Assembly: GCA_963822405.1 (NCBI GenBank)
Contig: CAWGHH010000001.1
Span: forward strand, 151,296 to 215,295
Direction: 5' to 3'
From: Candidatus Uhrbacteria bacterium
GTDB taxonomy: Bacteria; Patescibacteriota; Patescibacteriia; UBA9934
Length of the DNA: 64,000 nt
The notes under the pieces: generated by a model
The model's database searches: none
Told to the model about the DNA's origin: nothing
Seen by the model: only the letters and a program-made list of their open reading frames with translations
Program-made: the position numbers and the translations under genes
Part shown: one piece after another, positions 770 to 58,733 of the stretch
Numbering within the stretch: position 1 is the stretch's first letter
How the letters are laid out: the number at the start of each line of letters is the position of its first letter

Positions 770-823
770 TTTCTCTCCTTTCCCGCAATTGTAACCGGCG
801 GGTTCGGGTGATTTTACAGCAGC

Positions 824-878
824 ATCCTCAACGAACGTCTTAAAAAGAATGTAAGTTTTTAAGCAGTTGGTTGAGGAT
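824..878. promoter_or_regulatory. 9-bp inverted repeat (ATCCTCAAC / GTTGAGGAT) around a 37-nt spacer, upstream of the 26..769 gene
   Basis: Perfect IR seen directly at 824-832 and 870-878; sits in the promoter region of a minus-strand gene. Confidence 0.3.
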
Positions 879-929
879 CCCGGCCAGACAATGGTGCATT
901 GTCAGCCGAGATCTTGGGTGCGGTTCCTG

Positions 930-1040
930 CTACCGTTTGGTCAGCAGGAACCAGACAATCTGGGCGTAGGCGAGTGCGATCAAGCACCCGCTTCCGCCGA
1001 AACAGCAGAGGACAAAGATGTCCCCGACCTGGTGGGCCAT
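930..1040 (-). CDS. 36-aa hydrophobic peptide (MAHQVGDIFVLCCFGGSGCLIALAYAQIVWFLLTKR)
   Basis: ATG at 1040 with GGAGG 6 nt upstream; single TM-like hydrophobic stretch; the longer 930..1220 ORF is probably an over-extension. Confidence 0.3.
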   Translation of the reverse strand: MAHQVGDIFVLCCFGGSGCLIALAYAQIVWFLLTKR

Positions 1041-1129
1041 AGCGGCCTCCGTGGTTGTTGTCGAGTGAACGCTCGACGCGTGTTTTGGACTCCGTCGGTT
1101 AATTCCAGACGGCATCCAGCCCGATTTTT

Positions 1130-1495
1130 TTAGCTCTCCAGGGCGGAGAGGAAGAGCGGGAGGAATTCCTCCCACCCTTTTGGGGCGTTCGCCCGCGGTT
1201 CCCGCAGGCACTTGGCCCATGTCTCCGCCGGCGCGGGCCAGTACGGCGCGCGCCCATCACCCAGCACCTGCCGCAACCGGCGGGCGACTTCCTCGTGGAA
1301 GCGCGCCTCTCCGGCCATGTAGACGCCGTGATCCCAGCCGAATTCCGGGCTCGCGGACCAGGAAAAGGCCTCGCCTACGCGAGCGGTTTGCGCCGCCTGC
1401 TGGTGCCGGGTGGCGGCCTCGGCGACCGTCATGAGGCCGTGGTTAACCACGGCCCTCGCCACTGCGGCGGCGATTTCTTTTTCAGTGCGGGCCAT
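1130..1495 (-). CDS. hypothetical protein (121 aa)
   Basis: ATG at 1495 preceded by GGAGG (ttGGAGGccatcATG); the ORF extends to a TTG at 1507. Confidence 0.5.
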   Translation of the reverse strand: MARTEKEIAAAVARAVVNHGLMTVAEAATRHQQAAQTARVGEAFSWSASPEFGWDHGVYMAGEARFHEEVARRLRQVLGDGRAPYWPAPAETWAKCLREPRANAPKGWEEFLPLFLSALES

Positions 1496-1541
1496 GATGG
1501 CCTCCAATCAAGGAACTCGATCGCGCATGAGCTGCGCAGTG

Positions 1542-1594
1542 ATCGGTCCTCATCTGATCACTCAAGGGAGAGAGTCCTTAAGTGATCGGATGAG
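1542..1594. promoter_or_regulatory. Conserved long hairpin in 5' leader, copy A (conserved stem arms, variable apex)
   Basis: Left arm ATCGGTCCTCATCTGATCACTC pairs with AGTGATCGGATGAG (14 bp, one G.U); apex forms an AAGG/CCTT mini-stem; copy B at 2652-2703. Confidence 0.45.
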
Positions 1595-1673
1595 AATCCC
1601 TGAAGTGGTCGAGTGTCGACGAGACTTCAGGGATTTAGAGTGACGTAGTTGCGGAGCGTTAGCCCCACACCCG

Positions 1674-1964
1674 TCACCCACGTTGGTACCAACCCCCGTT
1701 GTTGGTTCGGTGTCCCTCCTTATGGATGGACATGATTTCCTTCCGGAGCTCTTTTCGAGCCACTCCTGGGGTCATGCCTGCTGGCGGAGCGAGTACGAAA
1801 AATTCGTACACCGCTCCGCGGTGGCAGTCCCCGCAGTATCCGTCATCCCAACAGCAGCACATTGTGCCGCCGTGGTTCAGACGGCGCGTTTCCGCGCCTG
1901 TCTGGACGAACCCCTGCGCGAGCAACCGCGCGAGGATAAGGTGGGATCGGGTTTTAATGGACAT
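1674..1964 (-). CDS. Cys-rich small protein (96 aa; CCCWDDGYCGDCH cluster)
   Basis: ATG at 1964 with AGGAGG RBS; dense Cys/His cluster suggests metal binding. Confidence 0.5.
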   Translation of the reverse strand: MSIKTRSHLILARLLAQGFVQTGAETRRLNHGGTMCCCWDDGYCGDCHRGAVYEFFVLAPPAGMTPGVARKELRKEIMSIHKEGHRTNNGGWYQRG

Positions 1965-2150
1965 TTTTCCTCCTTAAGAGGTTGATCGGTATGTCATACC
2001 GAAGCGTATTGATACGATCTCAACGCTCTCAAAATCCACAACCTCCATCATGAATTTTGAGAACGCGCCCTGGTACCGCTGTGTGCGTGGGTACCAGAGC
2101 GAGCGAAATTTTTTGGCAGACTATTCCTGGTCTGCCGGCAGGTACCGCCT

Positions 2151-2378
2151 TTACCAGGCGGTGTTGTTGAAGAAGGACTCCATGTCCTCCTTCGACGCTG
2201 CCCCCATGGGGCAGTCGTGGCTGTCGAGCGCTTCTTTGCGCTCGGCTAAGAGGGACATTCCGTCCCTCTGGAGATTCACCACGGCATACGTGCCGTGGAA
2301 CCCGCGCCACCCACCCGTGAGGGCGAGGAGGACGGGGACGAGCTGGGCGCTCATTCCCCCGTTCGCCACCAGGATCAT
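2151..2378 (-). CDS. hypothetical small protein (75 aa)
   Basis: ATG at 2378, 10 nt downstream of the preceding gene stop (operon-like); contains a CPMG motif. Confidence 0.4.
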   Translation of the reverse strand: MILVANGGMSAQLVPVLLALTGGWRGFHGTYAVVNLQRDGMSLLAERKEALDSHDCPMGAASKEDMESFFNNTAW

Positions 2379-2388
2379 ATGATCCTGG

Positions 2389-2577
2389 TCAGTGGTCTCG
2401 GCCCGGAGGCGCCTTGACCGCCTCGGAGACGGTGGCCGTGGCCACCCCCTCCGGCGGGGCGATGCGGTCGTCGTCCATGACGACGACCGTCGGGGTTGTT
2501 TTTGGGAATTCACGGAGGGCATCCGCGAGGATGCCCTCCACGTTCCGACCATTGAACACCAACAGCTTGGTCGACAT
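2389..2577 (-). CDS. hypothetical small protein (62 aa)
   Basis: ATG at 2577 with GGAGG 5 nt upstream; the listed ORF start at 2643 is a GTG inside the leader hairpin. Confidence 0.4.
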   Translation of the reverse strand: MSTKLLVFNGRNVEGILADALREFPKTTPTVVVMDDDRIAPPEGVATATVSEAVKAPPGRDH

Positions 2578-2651
2578 GGCGACCTCCAATTGAGTGACTC
2601 GATTTTTCCTCATGACTTCCGGCAAACATTTGCCAGCGGTCACGGAATAAC

Positions 2652-2703
2652 ATCGGTCCTCATCTGATCACTCGAACGGAGGATGTTCGAGTAGTCGGAT
2701 GAG
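2652..2703. promoter_or_regulatory. Conserved long hairpin in 5' leader, copy B
   Basis: Same 22-nt left arm as copy A; right arm GAGTAGTCGGATGAGG; apex forms a CGAAC/GTTCG mini-stem. Confidence 0.45.
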
Positions 2704-2806
2704 GAGAGGGGACCAGGCGAAGTGTTCGCTATGTCCCCTCACACGTCACTTTTCTTTTTAGGCTTGCCGGTAGGTTGTGCCAAAGGAAAAGAAAGTGAGA
2801 AAGAAC

Positions 2807-3052
2807 CTAATTGGGACTACCAGTCCCCGCACTCATTGGCGGGGACTTCGAGCCAGCGAGCGTATAGCCCGCCGAGGTTTCCTTTCGTCCCTTCTCGCCG
2901 GTATCCGGCGACGGCCACGTACCAGCGGCCGTCCTGCTGGACGACCGCCCCTGCCTCGGGGCTCTGAGCCAACCGGGCTCAGGGCCATGCCCCGAGGGTC
3001 CGTTTTCGGATCCTTCCTGGGCGGCAAGTTTCATGATTTCGGTTTTTTCCAT
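2807..3052 (-). CDS. Gly/Ser/Pro-rich small ORF (81 aa) behind the shared 67-nt leader; frame uncertain
   Basis: ATG at 3052 immediately after the AGGAGGAAAAA RBS that ends the conserved leader; low-complexity product. Confidence 0.3.
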   Translation of the reverse strand: MEKTEIMKLAAQEGSENGPSGHGPEPGWLRAPRQGRSSSRTAAGTWPSPDTGEKGRKETSAGYTLAGSKSPPMSAGTGSPN

Positions 3053-3055
3053 TTT

Positions 3056-3122
3056 TTCCTCCTTGCACTTTTAGATGCAGGTAATCGGCCCCCGTGTGAT
3101 GGGGTATGGTGTGCCGACCGTC
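3056..3122. promoter_or_regulatory. 67-nt conserved 5' leader element, copy 1 (about 5 mismatches against copy 2)
   Basis: ttcctccttgcacttttagatgcaggtaatcggcccccgtgtgatggggtatggtgtgccgaccgtc; carries the RBS and a CCTTGCA...TGCAGG stem adjacent to it. Confidence 0.5.
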
Positions 3123-3336
3123 TCTGATGAGACGGGTTTAACAAATTCGGAGCAAAGTTGCCTCCGACATAAACTCTCCATCATGAAGAATTTGTGTCGA
3201 AGGACGAGGAAGAGCGGTGCATGTGCTCAATTCCTCGCCTACGGGTGCTAATCATGTCCTTGTTGGACTTCACCGCGCAGATGGGGCACGTGTCAGTTTC
3301 TATAGGAGCTGTAGCCCCAGAAACTGACAAAGAAGG

Positions 3337-3561
3337 CTATTCCTGCGTATTGCCGCAGGAAGGGCAGACGCCGACCTTGTCGGCGTTGCCGAAGGCGCCC
3401 AGATGGGCGCCGCAACTCCAGCACGAAACGTCGTGCTGGATGGTCAAAGGGGGGGCGACTATCACCCCCCCACACTCTGGGCACAAGAGAGCCCCTGAGC
3501 CGTGCCTTATCGGCACGACTCCTGCATTGTGCGTGCAGACCGGGCACTGGATGTGATCCAT
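3337..3561 (-). CDS. double zinc-ribbon small protein (74 aa; four CxxC pairs)
   Basis: ATG at 3561 with AGGAGG RBS inside leader copy 2; CPVC, CPEC, CWSC and CPSC motifs. Confidence 0.5.
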   Translation of the reverse strand: MDHIQCPVCTHNAGVVPIRHGSGALLCPECGGVIVAPPLTIQHDVSCWSCGAHLGAFGNADKVGVCPSCGNTQE

Positions 3562-3563
3562 TG

Positions 3564-3630
3564 TTCCTCCTTGCACTTTTAGGTGCAGGTAATCGGCTCC
3601 CGTATGATGGGGTATGGTTTGCCGACCGTC
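3564..3630. promoter_or_regulatory. 67-nt conserved 5' leader element, copy 2
   Basis: Near-identical to 3056-3122; sits immediately upstream of the zinc-ribbon ORF. Confidence 0.5.
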
Positions 3631-4107
3631 CCGGAAGGGGCGGATTTAGGAAATGGTCGAGCGCATCGGTCACACCGACAGCGTAGTGTCCGCGTCGATG
3701 TCGTTGATTAGGACCTCCGTGTCCTGATCCACTACCAGGCCGAGCCTGATGGCGAGTGCAACCTGTTGACAGGTCGCCAACGTCACGAGCCGGGTGCAGC
3801 CGGCGTGGTGATCGAACGAGAATCGACGCCCGGAGGCATCGACCTGGGGCCCTGCACGGCCCCATCGAGCGCGATCGAGTTCACACAGAGGTTCTCGAAG
3901 GAGACGACCTGGCCGAACACGAAGTTGATACGCATGGTGTCCTCACTCCCGGTTTCCGCCGGGTCGGGATTGTCACGGCTTATAACCAGCTTCGAACTTC
4001 CAGGTGTTGACGATCTCTCGTCAGGGGCTGCGGCAGGTCGAGAAACTCGACTAAACCGACTAACGCCTGAACACCTTTCCGTCCAAACTGGCTACTCGCC
4101 AATCAGC

Positions 4108-9919: not shown

Positions 9920-9995
9920 GGGCTGATAGCTCAGTTGGTAGAGCATCTGCTTTGCAAGCAGAGGGTCCGGGGTTCGAGTCCCCGTCAGTCCACCA
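9920..9995 (+). tRNA. tRNA-Ala (anticodon TGC), CCA encoded
   Basis: Cloverleaf folded by hand: GGGCUGA acceptor, anticodon loop CUUUGCAAG, T-arm GGTTCGAGTCC. Confidence 0.9.
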
Positions 9996-10027
9996 AAAAA
10001 CCCACTAAAATCCGCCCTGGCGTTGTC

Positions 10028-10102
10028 GCCGGTCTGCGTTTCTCCTCGACGTACCACAAGTACGTCTCGTCGAAGCCTTGCCGGCTCCTAGCCAGGACGA
10101 AT
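10028..10102 (+). other. GC-rich structured element directly after tRNA-Ala (CCTGGC...GCCAGG outer stem, inner GACGTAC/GTACGTC hairpin) followed by a T-run
   Basis: Stems seen directly; followed by gaattttagagggttttttgtttgtg; could terminate the tRNA transcript or be a small RNA. Confidence 0.25.
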
Positions 10103-10225
10103 TTTAGAGGGTTTTTTGTTTGTGCGGCTTTGCCTCGATTAATCCTGAGATTGACCCTGAGAACGTTGACTTTTTGCTAAATTGGTGCTATTATTTTTGG
10201 TCTTAGCTAAACGACTGGAGGCTGT

Positions 10226-10768
10226 ATGCAAGACAAGGAAATCGCGAAACATAAGCGTGAAGAAATCGCGGAGCGCCATGAGCTGCTCGACAGCTTCCTG
10301 GCTTGGACGAAGACCGCGTCTGCTTGGTCTCTCGCTGGTCTGGGTACGATCGCGGTGGTGTTTGGAGCGGTGCAGGACGTATTGGCTCCGCTTTTGGCTT
10401 GGCTAGACGCGATCATGGGACCGCTCGACGAAATCCTCGTCGGAGCTACGCCCGAGATCATCATCCTTGAGTTTGTGCGTCGGTATACCGGCCACAACTT
10501 GATCGAACAGCTTCGGCTGAAGATCTCGGGGGCGCCTACATGGGTCTTGGCCGCTGTGGCGACCGGTACTGTGGGCGTAATGACTGGCACTGATCTGTCG
10601 GTCTACGTTCCAGTTATCGGGCTCGTTTCCATCCCGTTCCAGTTCATCGATCAGTACATCGTCGGTCTGCCAACGATCCTGATCGGGTTTGAACTTTACG
10701 AACGATGGAAGGCGAACCCCACCGAAATCAAACGTCTCGAAGACTCTACTTCCCGTTCGGGGGAGTAG
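10226..10768 (+). CDS. hypothetical membrane protein (180 aa), GC-rich relative to its flanks
   Basis: TTGACT-N17-TATTAT promoter at about 10172-10200; GGAGG RBS; several hydrophobic helices. Confidence 0.5.
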   Translation: MQDKEIAKHKREEIAERHELLDSFLAWTKTASAWSLAGLGTIAVVFGAVQDVLAPLLAWLDAIMGPLDEILVGATPEIIILEFVRRYTGHNLIEQLRLKISGAPTWVLAAVATGTVGVMTGTDLSVYVPVIGLVSIPFQFIDQYIVGLPTILIGFELYERWKANPTEIKRLEDSTSRSGE

Positions 10769-10786: not shown

Positions 10787-10808
10787 GGGCCGACATCGAA
10801 GTCGGCCC
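10787..10808. repeat. REP palindrome copy 1 (GGGCCGAC-ATCGAA-GTCGGCCC); a half-copy at 10833-10848
   Basis: Perfect 8-bp stem with a 6-nt loop, TTACTA tail. Confidence 0.7.
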
Positions 10809-10844
10809 TTACTATGGGGATCGAAGAGTAGCAGTCGGCCCTTA

Positions 10845-11651
10845 CTACGAAAGCTGCGCGGGCGTGTACTTGGTTTCTGAGAAGTTTTTGTAGAGGTCTT
10901 CCTCGGCTATGATATTGCCAGTGCGTTTGTCGATTGTTTGCCGGCAAATAGTATTTTTTCGGAAATACTTACCGGTTTTTTCGTCTTGAATAAAGGCGTG
11001 GTCTTTTTCGAAAACGTGATAAGTCACTTTTGGTTCATGTTTAGATCGAATCTCGCCGTGCAGATATTTGCTGTCGAGCCACAAGCGCACTTCGAAAGTT
11101 TCAGCCGTGTCATTTTTGAGAGCGAAGTCGAGATAGTTGTAAAAAAGCGTCGCGCCGGTACCAAAGGGGACGACTCTGTTAGAGTCCGGGAATGCATCGA
11201 AGCTGTGATGATGTCGCTCGTGCACAGTGAGCGGCGAGTGAAGCGCTAACCAGTGAAGCATGTTGGCCACGGCGCAAAGGCCGCCACCAACTCCGCGCAT
11301 TACTTCACCATCAGATAGCATCAATCCCTCAAGGTAGCCCTTTCGCGTGGTGGGTTTCCCAACAAGTCGCCAAAACGAGTAGATCTCTCCGGGCTTAATC
11401 AGGATTTTGTCAGCCTTTTTTAGGGCGAGTGCCAGGTTTGTCACTTTGTTGTATTGCAAGGTCATGTCGACCCCCTCGAGTTTTCGCAAGAGCGTCGATT
11501 CATGGGCGTAGACCTTGTGCGGTAACGGTTTCGCCGCTTTTTTTGTGGCGAATTTTTGGGAACCGAAGTACCAAGACCATTGTCGTTTGAGTCTGAGACC
11601 GGTTACTGCGAGGGGATAGAGGAGGGGGTGAGATTTTCGAGAGATGGGCAT
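10845..11651 (-). CDS. VanW-family protein
   Basis: GVGGGLCAVANMLHW resembles the VanW GGGxCQ motif; start placed at M19 (11651) because the upstream part is REP-derived. Confidence 0.5.
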   Translation of the reverse strand: MPISRKSHPLLYPLAVTGLRLKRQWSWYFGSQKFATKKAAKPLPHKVYAHESTLLRKLEGVDMTLQYNKVTNLALALKKADKILIKPGEIYSFWRLVGKPTTRKGYLEGLMLSDGEVMRGVGGGLCAVANMLHWLALHSPLTVHERHHHSFDAFPDSNRVVPFGTGATLFYNYLDFALKNDTAETFEVRLWLDSKYLHGEIRSKHEPKVTYHVFEKDHAFIQDEKTGKYFRKNTICRQTIDKRTGNIIAEEDLYKNFSETKYTPAQLS

Positions 11652-11659
11652 AGGGGAGA

Positions 11660-11680
11660 GGGCCGACATAGAAGTCGGCG
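11660..11680. repeat. REP copy 2 (degenerate right arm)
   Basis: gggccgacatagaagtcggcg. Confidence 0.6.
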
Positions 11681-11695
11681 AGCAAAGATCTGAAG

Positions 11696-11717
11696 GGGCC
11701 GACATAGAAGTCGGCCC
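11696..11717. repeat. REP copy 3
   Basis: gggccgacatagaagtcggccc plus TTACTAC tail. Confidence 0.7.
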
Positions 11718-11723
11718 TTACTA

Positions 11724-12311
11724 CTAGGTGTCAGTATATATCACTGGGTGGCCGTCGTTCCACCATGTATTTGGGTTGTTGACGATATATTGCCGAATCC
11801 GATCGAGATCACCGTTTGCGCGGGTTATGTGTTCGTAATAATTCGTTTGCCATAATCGCCGATCGTAGTATTTGTGATTGATTTTATGCCATCGAATATA
11901 TTCATTGGTCGAAACCGATTTGAACCATTGCATCACCCGCGGTAAATCCGTCGGCGCCGGCAAATTGTTCGTCGTAGGGGCCGACTTCGATGTCGGCCCT
12001 TTCTCATCAAACATTTCCACAATCCCGTGAAAATGATCCGGCATCACCACGTATTCGTGTAAACGTACATTTGAAAATTTGTTTGGTATGGTTGCCCACC
12101 ATTCGGTGATCATTGAACCGAATGCGGTTAAACGGATGTTGACCAGAGGGCCGACATTGAAGTCGGCCCCTACGCCGCGATTGACGATTACGTCGCCGAA
12201 AATACCGTCGCGGTTGTTTGCGTTTAATGTCACGTAATACAATCCGGGTGTCGAATAATCAAATCCTGGCAATCGTGGATTCTTACGTCCAATTTCTTTC
12301 CATGAAAACAT
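11724..12311 (-). CDS. REP-associated tyrosine transposase (RAYT / TnpA_REP, IS200-like HuH Y1), carrying two in-frame REP insertions
   Basis: HuH motif MPDHFHGIV; Tyr motif RRLWQTNYYEHITRANGDLDRIRQYIVNNP, YafM-like; REP copies 4 and 5 lie inside the ORF without breaking the frame. Confidence 0.8.
   Translation of the reverse strand: MFSWKEIGRKNPRLPGFDYSTPGLYYVTLNANNRDGIFGDVIVNRGVGADFNVGPLVNIRLTAFGSMITEWWATIPNKFSNVRLHEYVVMPDHFHGIVEMFDEKGPTSKSAPTTNNLPAPTDLPRVMQWFKSVSTNEYIRWHKINHKYYDRRLWQTNYYEHITRANGDLDRIRQYIVNNPNTWWNDGHPVIYTDT
11978..11999. repeat. REP copy 4 (inverted orientation, loop TTCGAT) inside the RAYT CDS
   Basis: gggccgacttcgatgtcggccc; translates in-frame as KGPTSKSAPTT. Confidence 0.7.
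12148..12169. repeat. REP copy 5 inside the RAYT CDS
   Basis: gggccgacattgaagtcggccc; translates in-frame as RGVGADFNVGPLV. Confidence 0.7.
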
Positions 12312-12419
12312 AAAACCCCATTCGTGAGATCGATTATGCGTCGATCATTTACGCCTGGGGAGTTATGTATATTGCACCATGTTATTTGGGCGGTTCTGGG
12401 TGGTCTGTGCATAACCGCC

Positions 12420-12441
12420 GGGTCGACATAGAAGTCGACCC
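12420..12441. repeat. REP copy 6 (variant GGGTCGAC arms) abutting the stop codon of the dehydrogenase gene
   Basis: gggtcgacatagaagtcgaccc; gene stop at 12442-12444. Confidence 0.65.
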
Positions 12442-13428
12442 TTACTTCACCGCATTCGGTGGTGTCTTTCCGTCCAGGAACGCCAGAATGTTCTCGGCGG
12501 CGGCGCGGCTCATGGCCTGGCGAGCTTCGATGGATGCGCTGGCCGTGTGAGGCGTGAGGACGACGTTTGGGAGTTTGCGGAGATCGTAGGTATCTGTCGG
12601 ATCGCAGTCGATGAGTGGCTCGCACTCGTAAACGTCCAGGCCTGCGCCGGCGATGTCGCCATGGGCGAGAGCGACGACCAGCGCCTTCTCGTCGATAATT
12701 GGTCCGCGCGACGTGTTGATGATGTACGCCGTCTTTTTCATGAGCTTCAGTTCACGCTCGCCAATGAGATGGCGAGTAGACGGCAGTAGGGGAACATGCA
12801 AAGACACGAAGTCAGCATGTTTCAGGAGCTCGTCTTTTTCCATGAAGGTCGCCCCAAATGCTTGTTCGAATTTTTCGTTTGGTTTGATGTCGTTGTAGAT
12901 GATCTTGATCCCGAAACCGTCATGCATTCGTTTGGCTAATGCCTCGCCAATAGCACCTCCGCCAATAATGCCGAGTGTCTTGCCGATTACGTCGACGCCG
13001 AGGAACATCTTTGGACCCCAGCCCCTATACTTGCCGGCGCGCGTGAAATCATCAGTCTCGACTATTCTATGGGCGAGCGCAAAGATAAGCGCGATGGTGT
13101 GCTCAGCGACGGTTTCCGAAACCTCAGGAGCGCGAGCGTTTGTCACCATGATCCCGCGCTTTTTAGCAGCCTCGAGGTCAATGTTGTCGAACCCTACCGC
13201 GTAGTTCGCGATCATTTTCAATTGTTTTCCGGCTGCACGCATGATCGAATCGTCGATCTTGTCGGTCAGAAGCGAAAGGATGATGTCGACCCCTTTTACA
13301 TTCGATTTTAGAACGCCAACTGGAATATTTTTGTTTTCCTCGTACACTTTTACCTCAATATCTGGTCGAGCCCGGAGCATTTTCAATCCTTCATCTGGAA
13401 TATCACGAGTCACGAAAATCTTTATCAT
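12442..13428 (-). CDS. D-isomer-specific 2-hydroxyacid dehydrogenase (glycerate / hydroxypyruvate reductase-like)
   Basis: NAD-binding GIIGGGAIG; catalytic region ...HVPLLPSTRHLI...; C-terminal TPHTASAS motif. Confidence 0.85.
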   Translation of the reverse strand: MIKIFVTRDIPDEGLKMLRARPDIEVKVYEENKNIPVGVLKSNVKGVDIILSLLTDKIDDSIMRAAGKQLKMIANYAVGFDNIDLEAAKKRGIMVTNARAPEVSETVAEHTIALIFALAHRIVETDDFTRAGKYRGWGPKMFLGVDVIGKTLGIIGGGAIGEALAKRMHDGFGIKIIYNDIKPNEKFEQAFGATFMEKDELLKHADFVSLHVPLLPSTRHLIGERELKLMKKTAYIINTSRGPIIDEKALVVALAHGDIAGAGLDVYECEPLIDCDPTDTYDLRKLPNVVLTPHTASASIEARQAMSRAAAENILAFLDGKTPPNAVK

Positions 13429-13430
13429 AA

Positions 13431-14144
13431 TTACTCAATTTTTGAGAAGTCGAGAGACGCGCGAATAATTTTCCAACCATCTTCCACACCGGCTGGCGCA
13501 CCTTTCCAAAGATCAAATTCTACCTGGGTTACGTTTTTATCAGTCGCGTACCAGATAACTTCATTGATTTGATAATCTATAGCGCCGGAAAAAGCGCCTT
13601 TTGCTATGACTACACTCTTCCCATTGATAACTTCATCTGTGAGGGTCACTTTTTCGTCTGGTGGGTAGGCGGCTGTTACTAGATCTTTAAGTGTTTTGAC
13701 GCCCAGCTGCGGAAATTCGCTTTTTGGACGAGTGTCCATGTTGACTGCAAAAATTGGTCCACCACAGTCAACACACGAATGATCCATGAAACCCGGGCTT
13801 ACTACTACTGAATATGTTTGGATTGAATCTAGTGGAGTTAGTTTTTCTTCTCTCAGCTCGCCAACTGCAGACCAGCCGGCAGGATAGGAAAAACCAGGCC
13901 GACGAGTATTTGCTGAGACGACGATTGTCTTAGTTTTCGCGGCTTCTTCACAGGCTTTAGTAACTTTTTCTGATTCTATCTTGATTGCAGCACCGACCTC
14001 AGCCTTACAAGCCGCGGCAATTGCCACCGAGTCTGGCCTGTTAGCATTAAAGAGAACTATGAGAGCAATGGCGCCAACTGACAAGCAAAGAATTGCGCCA
14101 ATAAGCGAGAAAATTAGAAAGGGAGCTTTTGAGGAGGACGGCAT
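13431..14144 (-). CDS. membrane-anchored hypothetical protein (237 aa)
   Basis: N-terminal TM helix; no recognisable motif. Confidence 0.45.
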   Translation of the reverse strand: MPSSSKAPFLIFSLIGAILCLSVGAIALIVLFNANRPDSVAIAAACKAEVGAAIKIESEKVTKACEEAAKTKTIVVSANTRRPGFSYPAGWSAVGELREEKLTPLDSIQTYSVVVSPGFMDHSCVDCGGPIFAVNMDTRPKSEFPQLGVKTLKDLVTAAYPPDEKVTLTDEVINGKSVVIAKGAFSGAIDYQINEVIWYATDKNVTQVEFDLWKGAPAGVEDGWKIIRASLDFSKIE

Positions 14145-14333
14145 ATTATTTTATTGCAGCTACGGCTGCCTCGGCGCAGGCTTTTGCAATGGTGTTAGCG
14201 TCGACTCTTGTTTGATAAAGCTGAACTAATAATACGAGTACCGCAATAAGCAGACCAAGGTTCCATAAGAGGAACATGATGGCCCAGCCTTTGCGTTTGT
14301 TTGGTTGTTCGGGCATATGCCCCTAAGTATACG

Positions 14334-15359
14334 CTAGCGAGAGGTAAATATCCGAATCTCATCCATTAACTTCTTGTTCGGCCACTTAGTGAGGAGTCCG
14401 GCTTTTGCCCCAACGTGTTGAATAACGCTTTCGGAGTTGAGCGTGCCGATCTGCAAAGCCTCGTCTACAGTTAATCCTTTCGCTAGAGCTGAGACTACGC
14501 CGGAACCAAATGCGTCACCAGCGCCAGTGGTTGAAATTGGGTGAATGTTTCTGGTTCTGGCCGAGTATTTGATTTTTCCCATCGAGGCATACGCCCCGCG
14601 AGGTCCGTCGGTCACCACGTCGAGTGTAGCGGTCGACTTCGATGTCGACCCTTGCAAGGCCACAGCCAGTTCCTTCCCATCTTTGGTTGACAGTCCCGTC
14701 AGTGTCTGTGCTTCTTCGAGGTTCACAAACAACACGTCGACATCTTTCAGGAGTGGTCGAAGTTCAGATGCCTTTGCAAGCTCGCCTCCACCTGGGTTTA
14801 CGGAAATTTTTGCGCCGGTTTTTTTGGCGTGCGCGATAATTTTTGAAAGTAAGGCAATGTTCCCGGATAGGGAAGACACGTAATACCATTTCGCCGAAAG
14901 GGTTTTGAGTGGCACGTCGGCGAGTGAAAACTCGGCGGAGACACCGCGGTGAACAAGCGCGGTTCGTTCGCCAGTCGGTGCTGTTAGTAGCGTGCTGTAG
15001 GCGGTTTGCCCACCTTTAATGCGCTTGACCATGGTCGCGTCGATCTTGTAGCGAGCGAGATCGCGCAGAACGTCGTCTCCCGGTTCGTCATCACCAACTC
15101 GCGATACGATGCCGGTGACGAAACCGAGATTCGCAAACGTCGCGGCGGCATTCGTTGCTCCACCGCCCGTCGACAGAACCACTTGTTCGACGTCAATCTT
15201 TGTTCCGAGGGCGACACACTCGCCAACGCCAGTAGAAAATTTGTCGGATTTGAGGAGTTGGAATTCTTTCGAAAGTAAAAAGACGTCCCGAACAGCGGAA
15301 CCGATGGTGATGATGTCGTACATATGCCCCCATTCTACACCGCGGCATTTCTTTTCCAA
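14334..15359 (-). CDS. PfkB-family carbohydrate kinase (ribokinase-like) with an in-frame REP insertion
   Basis: TTGAGDAFGSGVVSALAKG signature; REP copy 7 encodes GSTSKSTAT in a loop. Confidence 0.8.
   Translation of the reverse strand: MEKKCRGVEWGHMYDIITIGSAVRDVFLLSKEFQLLKSDKFSTGVGECVALGTKIDVEQVVLSTGGGATNAAATFANLGFVTGIVSRVGDDEPGDDVLRDLARYKIDATMVKRIKGGQTAYSTLLTAPTGERTALVHRGVSAEFSLADVPLKTLSAKWYYVSSLSGNIALLSKIIAHAKKTGAKISVNPGGGELAKASELRPLLKDVDVLFVNLEEAQTLTGLSTKDGKELAVALQGSTSKSTATLDVVTDGPRGAYASMGKIKYSARTRNIHPISTTGAGDAFGSGVVSALAKGLTVDEALQIGTLNSESVIQHVGAKAGLLTKWPNKKLMDEIRIFTSR
14630..14651. repeat. REP copy 7 (GGTCGAC variant, inverted) inside the PfkB CDS
   Basis: cggtcgacttcgatgtcgaccc. Confidence 0.65.
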
Positions 15360-32573: not shown

Positions 32574-33026
32574 TTAGCGCATCTCTTTCTGCGCCCAGTG
32601 TTTTGGCAGTTTGGTGGTTTTCAGGAGCTGTGCGGTTCGTTCGATATCAGCGAGGGGTACATTGTGGATATTGCGAGAGGCGCCGACGTTATTATCACAG
32701 GCGAAGTTCAGGATTTCTACGGTATACCCAAAGTTTCGACCAAGCATGATATACGGCGCAATTTCCCAAGCTTGGGCGTTCATGTTGTCGATGATGATTG
32801 TCGAGTCGCCGTTATGAAGTGCGTCATGGCATTTTTTGAAGCAGGCATCATGGGCGAGCTGGATTTTGGACTTGTCGTAGACGTATGTTCCGTCAGTTTG
32901 TAAGAAAAAATCATCTGCGGAGCAGATAACAGCGTCAGTTTGGGATTTCGCGTAAGTAGATTTGCCTGAGCCAGGAATACCGCGGAGAATTTGGAGAGAT
33001 TTCATATGGGGTAGGGGTCGACCCAT
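32574..33026 (-). CDS. P-loop kinase-like small protein (AAA_33 / zeta-toxin-like NTPase fold)
   Basis: Walker A GIPGSGKST; about 150 aa; start is 33026 or 33005. Confidence 0.55.
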   Translation of the reverse strand: MGRPLPHMKSLQILRGIPGSGKSTYAKSQTDAVICSADDFFLQTDGTYVYDKSKIQLAHDACFKKCHDALHNGDSTIIIDNMNAQAWEIAPYIMLGRNFGYTVEILNFACDNNVGASRNIHNVPLADIERTAQLLKTTKLPKHWAQKEMR

Positions 33027-33066
33027 GCGTCGACCCTTTCCGGAATTTTATGTAAGATGTGTTTGT

Positions 33067-46663: not shown

Positions 46664-47178
46664 CTGCTTGGAGAACTAGTAAGCCGAATTCTGTCGAGCC
46701 TCTACGTGCTTTCGGACGTAAAGATTCGTGACGATCATCTCTCTAGTTCTGACATTGCTGTCAGACTCATGCGAGCTACCTAATTTGCTCTTGCACCACG
46801 ATGGGTTTGCCGCACCCGTGCGTTACCGCGCGGGTGAGAGGAGTGGGCTCCTCACTTTTCACTGTACTTCACCATAGCTTGCGCCGCAGGTGAGTATCAT
46901 AGTCTCTGTTGCGTCTTTCTTGTGGTTTCCCACAAGTCTTGACCTTTGAGATTCTTGCGTTTCCCAAAGACTTTCCCTGGGCTTCCTGAGGCCTGTGGGG
47001 GACAGCGCGAAGCCGCCATCCAGTCCCTCACCGGCATCACTTTTTCCCGGTTGCTGTTAGCAACACCGTTTCTCATTCATGCATTGCTACATGAAGGGTG
47101 TTCGGACTTTCCTCCCCCTAACGTAGCTCCGAGCGTTAGCAAGGGGCGAAGTGGGGGCGATCATCTTGTTTTCCAAGC
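46664..47178 (-). ncRNA. rnpB: RNase P RNA, bacterial type
   Basis: P4 5' strand GGAGGAAAGUCCGAAC (rc of 47101-47123); P4 3' strand GACAGAAUUCGGCUUA (rc of 46679-46696), pairing with the bulged U; P1 GCUUGGA/UCCAAGC; GGUAACGC and GGGUGCGG blocks; terminator 46638-46663. Confidence 0.7.
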
Positions 47179-47184
47179 GAGGCA

Positions 47185-47213
47185 AGTATAGCAAAAATAG
47201 GCGAATATGTAAA
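47185..47213 (-). promoter_or_regulatory. rnpB promoter, TTTACA-N17-TGCTATACT
   Basis: Minus strand reads TTTACATATTCGCCTATTTTTGCTATACT; predicted start coincides with the P1 5' end. Confidence 0.55.
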
Positions 47214-47293
47214 GAAAAAGAAAGCTCCGCGTCATCTTACCCAGAGGGGGAAAATGCCGCGGAGCGGAAGGGGGGGACGGGGCTCTCTGCCCT

Positions 47294-47726
47294 CTAATCC
47301 CGCACGATCGGGCGCGAGAAAGAGGACGGGATGCTCCGCACGTTGTGTAACGGATTGGTCGACGGCTTGGGGGTCGGATCGTCGTCGATCTTGATGTTGC
47401 AGAGCTTGTCATCGAGGTCGTGAACGAACTTCGGCACCGCCATGGCGTACTGCTTCATGTTGTCGATCTCGGGTTTGTCAGTGCCCTCGATACGATCGAG
47501 GATGCTGCGGTACGTCGCGACGTTGTGGGGCTTGCCGTCGCAGTACGCACGGACGATGCCTTTGTGCATGACCGCGATCGACTTCCGCTCCCAATTGCCG
47601 GTGTCATCGAGCCGTTCGATGGTGTCCTCGATGTCCGCGAGCAGATGGTAGAATTCGGAGTCGCCGGTTGACGGTGGTGCAATGTCTGATTTGGCGGGAG
47701 TAGCCGTGATGATCTTTTTGGTCACG
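47294..47726 (-). CDS. hypothetical protein (GC-rich island), GTG start
   Basis: GGAAGG RBS before the GTG at 47726. Confidence 0.4.
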
Positions 47727-47981
47727 GGACCTTCCTGTGGTGGGGTTCTAACCGTTGTTGGGAACAAATTCCTTCCGGGGAGGAAGAAACGCTCGTAAAC
47801 GGTATACAAAAAATGGCTAACCGTCAACGTCCAGATAGGGTCACAGGACTGACTGCGGTTACGGGTAAGGGCGGGGCTTGCCCTGCGCCTATATATGAAA
47901 GCACCCGCCCGCCTGATGAGGAGTCAGGCGGACGGGCACAGAGTACGTCGTACGCGGACGACGTGTCATGGACAAGCGGTA

Positions 47982-48520
47982 CTAGGCCGTGATGAGCGTG
48001 CTGAGCGTCTCGGTGATGGCTTCAGCGGACGTCAGGCGATAGAGCACGGCGACGTTCTTCTCGGAGCGGATCTGGCGTGCCAGCGCCTCGATCTGCTCGA
48101 TCTTGCTGTACAGATCCTTCAGCTTCATGGTGAACGGCGCACAGTGCCGAACAAAGCCGGTGGTCAGCGTAAGAATGCGCGGGATCATCTCCCGCCGGGC
48201 ATCATCAGACATCTTCTGATCAAGGAAGCTGAGGCAATCATTGATCTTGATCTTCTCGCCTTCCTTGCGCCGTTCGCGCATCTGGGCAACGATCAGCATG
48301 TCCGTTTCGAGCTCAGCGCTGGTCGCGAGCCCATGGAACTGCCGATCCTTCTGCGCCTGAATGCGCATGTTCAGGAGCGCCAGGGTGACCTTTTCCTCGA
48401 CCGTCTTGGCGAACGAGGCATCGGCCGCGATTTCCGCGGTCAACTCGTTTTGCGCTTGCCGTTTGGGGTGGCGCGCAGGCGGACGGGGAACGGAGTCAGT
48501 GGTGTCGTCATCGGACGACA
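47982..48520 (-). CDS. hypothetical alpha-helical protein (GC-rich island)
   Basis: ATG at 48520; imperfect hairpin at 47911-47945 downstream of the stop. Confidence 0.4.
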
Positions 48521-48710
48521 TAGCGGGGTGATCCAAGGCAGTACTCCGGTGGGAATCCCTTCCGTGGGACGGTTGGGAATTGTTGGTTGCGCTCAGAAAG
48601 AGCCCCCAAATACTATAACTCGCACCGGCTAATGTCAATAATTTGGCTAATAATAGAAAAACGCCCGACCCCCGAAGGAGACGAGCGTAGAGCCAAGCCC
48701 ATTTAGCGAA

Positions 48711-48977
48711 TCAGTCCTTCTTGAGGACGTACTTCGCTCGTGGTTCCTGGGCGAGCAGCATTACGCCACTCATGAGCAGAAGCCCCGTAATTAGGGCAAG
48801 TCGCCCTGGCGTTTCCACCTGCATTCCCGTGCCGGTCATATTCCAGCTGACGAGAAACGAGTAGATCGCTCCCGAAGTGACCGAGAAGACCAATCCGGAG
48901 ACGATCATGATCACGAGCCAGCTCATGGCCGACCGCACGATTAGCTGCCAGTCTTTCTGGTTCACGAAGACCTCCAA
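48711..48977 (-). CDS. small membrane protein (88 aa)
   Basis: Two hydrophobic helices. Confidence 0.4.
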   Translation of the reverse strand: MEVFVNQKDWQLIVRSAMSWLVIMIVSGLVFSVTSGAIYSFLVSWNMTGTGMQVETPGRLALITGLLLMSGVMLLAQEPRAKYVLKKD

Positions 48978-48980
48978 GGT

Positions 48981-49157
48981 TTAGATGTCGAGTTTTACTC
49001 GGATAGCTTCGCAGGTCGGAACAATCGGCATTGCGAGTGCAAGACAGATCGTCTGACCGTCAATCTCGACGCCCCACAAGGAGTGGAGTCCGAAGAGACC
49101 GAGGAGACCGGAGATACCGGCCAATGCGAGTACACCGAGAATCTGGAAAATGGACAT
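48981..49157 (-). CDS. small membrane protein (58 aa)
   Basis: ATG at 49157 with GAGGG RBS. Confidence 0.35.
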   Translation of the reverse strand: MSIFQILGVLALAGISGLLGLFGLHSLWGVEIDGQTICLALAMPIVPTCEAIRVKLDI

Positions 49158-58656: not shown

Positions 58657-58733
58657 GGATCCGTAGCTCAGTTGGTTAGAGCGCCGAGCTTATACCTCGG
58701 TGGTCCCTGGTTCAAGTCCAGGCGGATCCACCA
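58657..58733 (+). tRNA. tRNA-Ile (anticodon TAT), CCA encoded
   Basis: Canonical cloverleaf: GGATCCG acceptor, D-stem GCTC/GAGC, anticodon stem CCGAG/CTCGG, loop CTTATAC with U33 and A37, T-arm CCTGG-TTCAAGT-CCAGG. Confidence 0.85.

Follow-up and report, generated by a model that had tools for sequence, protein, structure and literature searches.

A probable subclass 2.4 TnpA_REP transposase and its GTAG-footed hairpins in a Patescibacteria genome

A 64,000-nucleotide stretch of a Candidatus Uhrbacteria bacterium genome (assembly GCA_963822405.1, contig CAWGHH010000001.1, positions 151,296 to 215,295; hereafter the window) carries a gene for a REP-associated tyrosine transposase (RAYT, also TnpA_REP) among short repetitive extragenic palindromic (REP) hairpins. 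We regard it as highly likely that this locus is a REPtron, in which a domesticated Y1/HUH transposase of TnpA_REP subclass 2.4 (RAYT Group 4), present in single copy and inherited vertically, is accompanied by a small set of GTAG-footed hairpins of its own. The analysis revealed that the Y1 HUH enzyme is intact and has the residues that read GTAG, that cognate GTAG hairpins lie next to its gene and within it, that stem pairing is maintained and that the locus is conserved. The host belongs to the Patescibacteria, and the locus is a new example of an already described subclass, in which REPs inside the transposase's own gene are a published trait. The label "transposase" is no evidence of a mobile island here and, apart from a lead at synonymous sites, the annotation is routine. 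This synonymous-site anomaly and a conserved RAYT leader are modest new leads, absent from the passages of the cited papers that treat these systems.

An earlier note on this DNA had described the REP cluster as unusual for a genome resembling those of the Candidate Phyla Radiation (CPR). The CPR context holds because the closest homologue of the RAYT protein (P0002) comes from a Patescibacteria metagenome-assembled genome (MAG). "Unusual" was overstated, since TnpA_REP subclass 2.4 has been published with just this signature, few and local REPs of which some stand in frame within the transposase gene (PMC6006769, in its description of that subclass).

The RAYT protein and its hairpin family

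The RAYT protein matched the Pfam profile Y1_Tnp (PF01797) with 37.5 bits against a cut-off of 23 (E = 3e-9), thereby passing the Y1/HuH profile check proposed in the earlier note, and the HuH motif reported there is present as H93-F-H95. REP_Tyr_transpos was the best NCBIfam match. A single-sequence search of the PDB returned only a spurious match to dodecin, and a homologue profile was needed; with a profile of 20 homologues, the best PDB sequence was 4ER8, the Escherichia coli TnpA_REP, with the WQ..EH..R and YIxNP segments aligned. In this profile alignment W154, Q155, E160, H161 and R164 fell on E. coli W94, Q95, E100, H101 and R104, which recognise GTAG according to the account of the E. 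coli enzyme in PMC6006769. The segment WQTNYYEH had been taken for the tyrosine motif. Because the alignment placed W154–R164 on the GTAG-reading residues and Y175 on the tyrosine motif, WQTNYYEH is instead the foot-recognition segment, and the catalytic tyrosine is Y175 in YIVNNP. H93, H95, W154, Q155, R164, Y175, N179 and P180 were invariant across the 20 homologues.

The fold was evaluated with an AlphaFold (AF2) model, which had a predicted local distance difference test score (pLDDT) of 80.6. The top 30 PDB matches of this predicted fold in Foldseek were all Y1 HUH transposases, including 4ER8, and nothing else was matched at E ≤ 1e-3; 4ER8 had the highest query TM-score (0.51), and the TnpA proteins of IS608 and ISDra2 ranked top by E-value. 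Moreover, homologues of the protein are annotated by the Joint Genome Institute (JGI) as "REP element-mobilizing transposase RayT". The Pfam match, the Y1-only fold matches, the flanking GTAG-footed hairpins and the JGI-annotated homologues together bear out the earlier identification of a REP-associated tyrosine transposase with cognate REPs. The homologues come from Chloroflexi, Nitrospirota, Bacteroidota, Cyanobacteria and Deinococcota, which agrees with the scattered distribution of subclass 2.4. The window holds one RAYT copy, P0001. It was compared with the orthologous loci of three relatives, L011 (RAYT P0002, about 82% identity), L096 (P0003, about 79%) and L097 (P0004, about 55%), and with the paralogous RAYT of a relative, P0005/P0006 (loci L014 and L098). 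The ratio of nonsynonymous to synonymous divergence (dN/dS) against the orthologues was 0.14–0.31.

A search of the window with GGGCCGACATAGAAGTCGGCCC, allowing up to 3 mismatches, gave matches only at 10787, 11660, 11696, 11978, 12148 and 12420, and 100 dinucleotide-preserving shuffles gave an expectation of 0.00 copies. A looser degenerate search added a GGTCGAC variant at 14630–14651, and repeat finding recovered the same 7-copy family plus a broken copy, or half-site, at 10829–10848, with all seven copies within 3.9 kb (10787–14651). The count of seven palindromes and a half-site in about 4 kb in the earlier note was thus correct. The palindrome consensus is GGGCCGAC-ATMGAA-GTCGGCCC, 22 nt long with an 8-bp stem and a 6-nt loop, and the copies folded as single-stranded DNA with energies of -6.6 to -10.1 kcal/mol (-10 kcal/mol, z score -5.2, for the copy at 11696–11724). 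Both orientations occur, as had been stated, when copies are judged by their asymmetric loop and foot.

The sequence TTACTAC follows the 11696 copy and the half-site, TTACTAT follows the 10787 copy and TTACTTC follows the 12420 copy. The tail noted earlier is present at some copies; TTACTAC is the reverse complement of a GTAGTAA foot seen on the opposite strand. The family consists of GTAG-type REPs, with foot and loop orienting each copy. Within about 1 kb, a GTAGTAA foot and hairpin lie directly 3' of RAYT, a GAAGTAA foot and hairpin lie 109 nt 5' of it, and two GTAG-footed hairpins lie inside it.

Over the other approximately 60 kb of the window, the search found 0 copies of this type A hairpin and 1 second-type (type B) REP at 33011–33036. 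The latter resembles the REPs of the relative's paralogous RAYT (P0005 type; L014 10001–10618), a RAYT of this kind being its likely cognate enzyme, and no second RAYT that would account for it was found in the window. A collection-wide contig scan with GGGCCGACNTNGAAGTCGGCCC gave 10 loci, one of which (L003) was from a relative, while the rest were single chance-level matches in unrelated phyla. Rfam gave no match for the REPs or for the RAYT leader. The coordinates of all features are given in Table 1.

Table 1. Coordinates in the window of the RAYT gene, its leader, the REP copies and the VanW-domain neighbour.
Feature	Coordinates	Strand	Description
RAYT / TnpA_REP gene	11724..12311	-	195 aa; HuH H93-F-H95; W154-Q155...E160-H161...R164; Y175 and N179 in YIVNNP
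Conserved RAYT leader	12312..12380	-	TGGTGCAAT, then CTCCCCA ... hairpin GATCGA/TCGATC ... TGGGG-N4-ATG
REP	11696..11724	-	GTAGTAA + GGGCCGAC-TTCTAT-GTCGGCCC; directly 3' of RAYT
REP variant	12420..12448	-	GAAGTAA + GGGTCGAC-TTCTAT-GTCGACCC; directly 3' of the 2-hydroxyacid dehydrogenase gene
In-frame REP 1 in RAYT	12148..12173	-	coding strand GTAG + GGGCCGAC-TTCAAT-GTCGGCCC; encodes G-V-G-A-D-F-N-V-G-P
In-frame REP 2 in RAYT	11974..11999	+	GTAG foot on non-coding strand; encodes K-G-P-T-S-K-S-A-P-T, loop after HuH
In-frame REP in PfkB-family kinase gene (14334–15359, -)	14626..14651	+	GTAG-C-GGTCGAC-TTCGAT-GTCGACC; encodes G-S-T-S-K-S-T-A-T
REP	11660..11681	-	second copy between RAYT and VanW; without GTAG foot; two outer stem pairs broken
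REP	10787..10815	-	ATAGTAA + GGGCCGAC-TTCGAT-GTCGGCCC; between the convergent 180-aa open reading frame and VanW; no copy at this position in L011
Broken REP	10816..10848	-	GTAGTAA foot and adjoining stem arm GGGCCGACT (10833–10841, minus strand) kept; opposite arm lost
VanW-domain gene	10845..11651	-	Pfam VanW, 129 bits; same strand, downstream of RAYT; neighbour, not component
Second-type REP	33011..33036	+	GTAG + GGGTCGAC-CCATGC-GTCGACCC; solitary, between divergently transcribed genes

Copies inside genes and at gene ends

Three copies lie in frame inside genes, two in RAYT, where they bracket the HuH motif, and one in the PfkB kinase; the earlier note had missed this. REP 1 is an insertion relative to 14 of the 20 homologues and stands at the same place in L011, L096, L097 and the paralogue L014. 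In the AF2 model its peptide forms the turn of a beta-hairpin, between strands 39–44 and 56–61. REP 2 falls in a low-confidence loop of the model (residues 101–122), within which residues 105–116 were taken as a disordered loop because their pLDDT is below 50; this position is the site of the subclass 2.4 REP insertions described in PMC6006769 in its treatment of that subclass. REP 1 and REP 2 form an inverted pair with 31-nt arms, 94% complementary and 146 nt apart, on either side of the HuH codons. A REPIN insertion into RAYT was considered and ruled out, since conserved core residues, HuH among them, are encoded in the 146 nt that separate the internal REPs.

The REP in the PfkB gene adds 4–6 residues relative to paralogous kinases and 1–4 relative to solved ribokinases. 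At the same codon position the L011 orthologue carries a REP of the other type, GGGTCGAT-ACATGG-ATCGACC-CCTAC. The in-frame copies landed in permissive surface loops.

Intragenic REPs were also counted across the wider family. A metagenome scan for close relatives had yielded one close locus, L016 (from the same genome as L014), and about 79 distant family members, which served this count but not the synteny comparison. At least one GTAG-hairpin lay inside the RAYT open reading frame (ORF) in 67 of 83 family loci, two or more did so in 50 of the 83, and the density of GTAG-hairpins was 2.8 per kb inside the ORF compared with 0.15 per kb in distant flanks. One distant family member, L020, has eight GTAG-GGGCGAAC hairpins at 131–634 in a regular 68–69-nt array just upstream of RAYT, a clustered REP block and not a dispersed family. 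In addition, L077 (5396–6543) and L081 (2524–3838) each apparently contain two adjacent RAYT copies, each copy with its own inverted internal REP pair, as judged from tblastn match ranges and REP positions only.

Among the co-oriented genes for 2-hydroxyacid dehydrogenase (2-Hacid_dh), RAYT and VanW, the extragenic copies occupy junctions and 3' ends, where they provide the stop codons of these genes. The TAA in the foot of the 12420–12448 REP is the stop codon of the dehydrogenase gene. RAYT ends in a TAG whose G is the first base of GTAG in the 11696–11724 REP, giving a tandem TAG-TAG-TAA, and the TAG stop codon of VanW (10845–10847) lies inside the GTAG of the broken REP at 10816–10848. Both the start and the stop of VanW adjoin REPs, with the 11660–11681 copy, which is absent in L011, ending 8 nt before the start codon; VanW is a conserved neighbour in L011, L096 and L097. 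The possibility that the REPs are intrinsic terminators was rejected: they have no T-runs and a consensus terminator scan did not call them.

Most of these properties match subclass 2.4 as defined by Quentin, Siguier, Chandler and Fichant (2018, PMC6006769), which corresponds to RAYT Group 4 of Bertels et al. (2017, PMC5581495). In the parts of the former paper that characterise it, the subclass has a median length of 194 aa, the motifs NH[IFV]H, WQ and YIxNNP, a variable insertion between beta3 and alphaC and, as a "remarkable and unique feature", frame-preserving REP insertions within tnpA_REP genes. The window RAYT likewise has 195 aa, WQ, YIxNNP and a variable loop between HuH and Y, with GTAG-footed hairpins whose stem opens with three G-C pairs and with REPs in frame within tnpA_REP. 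It also shares with the subclass, as characterised there, the one or few copies per genome, the low REP number and the scatter across phyla. Repeat counts are low for Group 4, whose commonest flanking 16-mer occurs about 14 times replicon-wide, compared with about 57 times for Group 2.

The window differs from the subclass, in contrast, in that its host is a member of the CPR, a group not among the phyla named for subclass 2.4 in that description, and the literature searched contained no discussion of RAYTs in CPR. D replaces N before the HuH motif, and one REP lies upstream of HuH in a beta-hairpin turn, whereas the insertions described in PMC6006769 for the subclass are generally between HuH and Y. 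Furthermore, the window has a clade-specific, near-invariant leader, and its REP family is almost confined to the REPtron.

Compared with the E. coli TnpA_REP (YafM; 4ER8; subclass 2.2, RAYT Group 2), the window protein has the same Y1 HUH fold, GTAG-reading WQ..EH..R residues, catalytic Y with N-P four residues on, and REPs flanking the gene, but it is only 15% identical in structural alignment. The E. coli protein, unlike that of the window, carries DHLH, WE and YIHYNP and has no loop insertions, and the E. coli REPs are longer, bulged, organised as bacterial interspersed mosaic elements (BIMEs) and much higher in copy number.

Intragenic GTAG REPs and GTAG-supplied stop codons have already been catalogued by Di Nocera et al. 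(2013, PMC3733652). As in the intragenic GTAG/CGTC REPs of that catalogue, and in the Rickettsia palindromic elements of Ogata et al. (2000) as cited within it, short palindromes stand in frame in functional genes, and the GTAG feet give TAG stops to flanking ORFs. In the catalogued genomes tens of genes are affected, many of them for DNA repair, whereas here RAYT and one sugar kinase are affected in 64 kb, and the kinase site is common to two species with different REP types.

Conservation of the locus and alternative explanations

The gene order of the window is repeated in L011, namely PfkB, DUF2090, PfkB, two small genes, 2-Hacid_dh, RAYT, VanW, a small membrane ORF, tRNA-Ala and FG-GAP/YkuD; L096 keeps RAYT-VanW and L097 keeps 2-Hacid_dh-RAYT-VanW. 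A blastn comparison of the window with L011 showed about 17 kb of colinear synteny, on both sides of the locus, at 69–78% identity. Moreover, REPs stand at the same positions in the related loci: after 2-Hacid_dh, at the two internal sites, after RAYT and in PfkB. The locus is ancestral to several related Patescibacteria.

The hairpin stem varied between loci while its pairing was kept. Across the window, the three orthologous loci and the paralogous RAYT loci the stem has four forms, GGGCCGAC, GGGTCGAC, GGGCCGAT and GGGTCGAT, and the partner arm always matches. Among 15 distinct REP versions 95% of stem cells pair, with double changes at three positions (11 cells); 0 of 500 shuffles reached the observed level of pairing, and slid registers fell to 14–46%. 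Pair 4 of the upstream and downstream REPs has its C-G and T-A forms exchanged between the window and L011, the L011 orthologue of the 12420–12448 REP having the C-G form, a compensatory difference. The stem type also tracks the RAYT: P0001 to P0003 go with GGGCCGAC and loop TTCNAT, P0004 with GGGCCGAT and loop CCATGT, and P0005/P0006 with GGGTCGAT and loop CCATGT. Either selection maintains the hairpin or the enzyme keeps its copies uniform; the data do not separate the two.

Immediately upstream of RAYT lies a leader in which TGGTGCAAT resembles an extended -10 element. Among the four orthologues, including the one at 55% protein identity, 65–70 of 78 nt are identical. The predicted RNA fold of the leader (-21.2 kcal/mol, z score -3.6) pairs CCCCA with a Shine-Dalgarno-like GGGG and also pairs the first AUG bases. 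In the paralogue the outer CCCCA/TGGGG is kept around an 8-bp REP-like hairpin, and the leader is absent from other RAYT loci of the wider family. Since MAFFT misaligned the longer hairpin of the paralogue, which weakened the covariation test, the single-sequence fold and the conservation were relied on. From these features we infer that the leader comprises a promoter and a translation-limiting 5' untranslated structure over the ribosome-binding site and start codon; it is possibly an autoregulatory site.

Several findings weigh against a vertically inherited member of subclass 2.4 with a REP family of its own. First, the NCBIfam model REP_Tyr_transpos (NF047646) scored 54.5 bits, under its cut-off of 80, as would be expected if that model is centred on other subclasses. 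Second, the window and L011 have DHFH around the HuH motif, against a subclass consensus of NH[IFV]H, and P0003–P0006 have NHFH or NHIH. Third, the REP family is tiny and local: a single distant copy was found in the 60 kb, and the entire MAG of a relative gave one exact match; genome-wide REP spread is therefore not evident. Finally, the synonymous divergence (dS) of RAYT between the window and L011 was 0.67, compared with at least 2.0 or saturation for six neighbours, and third-position identity was 69.7% for RAYT versus 36–48% for five neighbours, an effect that was even along the gene. RAYT lies 3–5 times below every neighbour in synonymous divergence, which strict vertical descent does not predict. 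At the paralogous RAYT locus (L014/L098) dS was likewise 0.195 compared with 0.69–1.26 for the flanking genes. Such excess synonymous conservation was not seen in the two other usable family pairs, L081/L087 and L082/L086. The low dS of RAYT means either that the cassette was exchanged among related lineages or that its nucleotides are under selection.

The first of these explanations is a minority reading that we nevertheless take seriously: RAYT, leader and REPs would have been exchanged, without change of locus, among related Patescibacteria that co-occur, either through recombination or through REP-targeted integration. Exchange would explain why RAYT looks younger than its neighbours at both loci and why REP types switch at fixed sites, as in PfkB, where one and the same codon is occupied by a type-A-like REP in the window but by a type-B one in L011. 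Also in its favour, VanW groups the window with L096 (82% versus 60%) while RAYT shows about equal distances; for 2-Hacid_dh L097 is about equidistant (91%), yet its RAYT is at 55%; and L011 and L096 come from the same sample. However, the last 68 nt of the leader are about 96% identical between the window and L097 even though the proteins are only 55% identical, so part of the cassette is certainly under nucleotide-level selection, which could reach into the coding sequence. No sharp identity boundary was seen at the upstream REP, the four loci are too few for a tree test, and the two other family pairs show no excess conservation.

A further, speculative idea, which we hold unlikely, is that RAYT, leader and REPs form a self-homogenising cassette with a fixed chromosomal site, at which co-occurring Patescibacteria exchange or convert it. 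It would explain the low dS at two independent RAYT loci, the REP stems changing in concert per genome and the type switch in PfkB. If it were true, the selected substrate of the enzyme would be its own locus and a few gene junctions, not a genome-wide REPIN population, and the leader hairpin, REP-like in the paralogue, would be an autoregulatory site.

That the hairpins serve the host as regulatory elements (terminators or stabilisers of mRNA), are selected through the neighbouring genes and lie near RAYT only incidentally is very improbable. The extragenic copies do stand exactly at gene ends and supply stop codons, and compensatory stem changes would be read as selection for pairing. However, the hairpins lack T-tracts and are not picked by the terminator scan, three copies lie inside ORFs, the copies carry or adjoin a GTAG-type foot (the 11660–11681 copy itself has none), from genome to genome the stem sequence follows the type of RAYT, and none stands at other gene ends in 60 kb.

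The earlier note had proposed a small island acquired at a tRNA-Ala gene, by which RAYT, the REPs and a GC-rich 180-aa ORF would have been placed there by recent horizontal transfer. The gene it referred to, tRNA-Ala(UGC), is indeed next to the REP/RAYT region (9920–9995, plus strand; 1.7 kb away). The 180-aa ORF (10226–10768) is GC-rich as noted (56%, against 49% for the whole window), fast-evolving and only weakly similar to its positional counterpart in L011, and because the tRNA gene is inverted relative to the L011 synteny, this spot has been rearranged. The step from GC content to an island failed, however, as RAYT has 46% GC, under the window mean, and the GC signal is incoherent. The order from 2-Hacid_dh to FG-GAP/YkuD is shared with L011 and the RAYT core also with L096 and L097, at 55–82% RAYT identity; REPs stand at orthologous sites, the flanking synteny is kept, and no integrase, tRNA 3'-end direct repeats or other island hallmarks were seen. 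A recent island is largely refuted by synteny, and we give it very little credence.

At the same spot, the tRNA-Ala(UGC) gene corresponds to 11922–11997 in L011, inverted within otherwise colinear synteny. The small membrane ORF keeps the position of L011 11476–11820 with a BLASTP E of 0.03; since its sequence is almost unrecognisable beside this counterpart and the lengths are 180 and 114 aa, it evolves very fast.

Least credible of all is an active IS200/IS605-type insertion sequence with the palindromes as subterminal end hairpins: the protein fold is the same, IS608 and ISDra2 TnpA lead the Foldseek E-values and NCBIfam transpos_IS200 matches weakly (25 bits, under its cut-off of 55), but RAYT is single-copy in the window and at an orthologous position in four genomes without tnpB, identical GTAG REPs extend over 4 kb and into other genes in place of one left and one right end, and the motifs are WQ and YIxNNP, not W[TS] and Y[IV]ENQ. 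Fold and chemistry, with single-stranded DNA hairpin recognition and an HUH + Y1 nuclease, are nevertheless likely common ground with IS608 and ISDra2 TnpA, by modelling and analogy for the window protein.

Proposed mechanism, significance and other observations

For a domesticated subclass 2.4 enzyme at this locus, the binding, cutting and rejoining of single-stranded DNA would follow the biochemistry reported for E. coli TnpA_REP and IS608 (PMC8266576 and PMC6006769, in the portions on these enzymes). By this analogy, the enzyme would bind the 8-bp/6-nt hairpin and the GTAG foot 5' of it in DNA that is single-stranded, probably at the replication fork. Y175 would cut with a metal held by H93/H95, the strand would be rejoined, and this cutting and rejoining may seed or replace REP copies nearby; in-frame copies would survive only in tolerant loops. 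The REPs of E. coli act as 3' stabilisers or attenuators, and the intercistronic hairpins of the window, as RNA, probably do likewise; once transcribed at the ends of cistrons, they would affect mRNA decay and the translation of what lies downstream. The leader probably keeps RAYT translation low by occluding the ribosome-binding site, as its predicted fold suggests.

RAYTs are the best-studied domesticated bacterial transposases, and what selects for them is still open. Here related species have kept a RAYT in the same place, and within the 64 kb very few REPs were seen elsewhere; the gene can thus persist without a large REPIN population. The four orthologues, one paralogue, three REP types, compensatory stems and in-frame copies at fixed sites form a natural series for enzyme-hairpin co-evolution. 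If the low dS reflects cassette exchange or nucleotide-level selection, it bears on whether RAYTs are truly immobile.

Other features of the window were also recorded. Directly after tRNA-Ala, at 9994–10118, lies a near-perfect extended hairpin of about 125 nt with an A-run and a T-run at its ends; its RNA fold has -61.3 kcal/mol (z score -8.2), it is unique in the window, and it is absent from L011, where a short terminator stands. It may be a terminator acting in both directions or a small element that was inserted.

The stretch at 800–4100 is GC-rich (0.57–0.61 versus about 0.48 elsewhere), with no ORF of at least 150 aa between 811 and 3293 and with translations that look non-coding. A search of this stretch against Rfam gave nothing even at E ≤ 1 except chance microRNA-type matches. 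If any part of the window is foreign or non-coding DNA, this stretch is more likely to be so than the RAYT region. Further GC-rich kilobases lie at 30001–31000 (0.59) and 47001–49000 (0.57).

Most bacteria read AUA with a lysidine-modified CAU tRNA instead of a UAU tRNA. In the window, ARAGORN called two tRNA-Ile genes with anticodon TAT (UAU), one at 31338–31411, which scored only 40.5 bits on the Rfam tRNA model, and one at 58657–58733.

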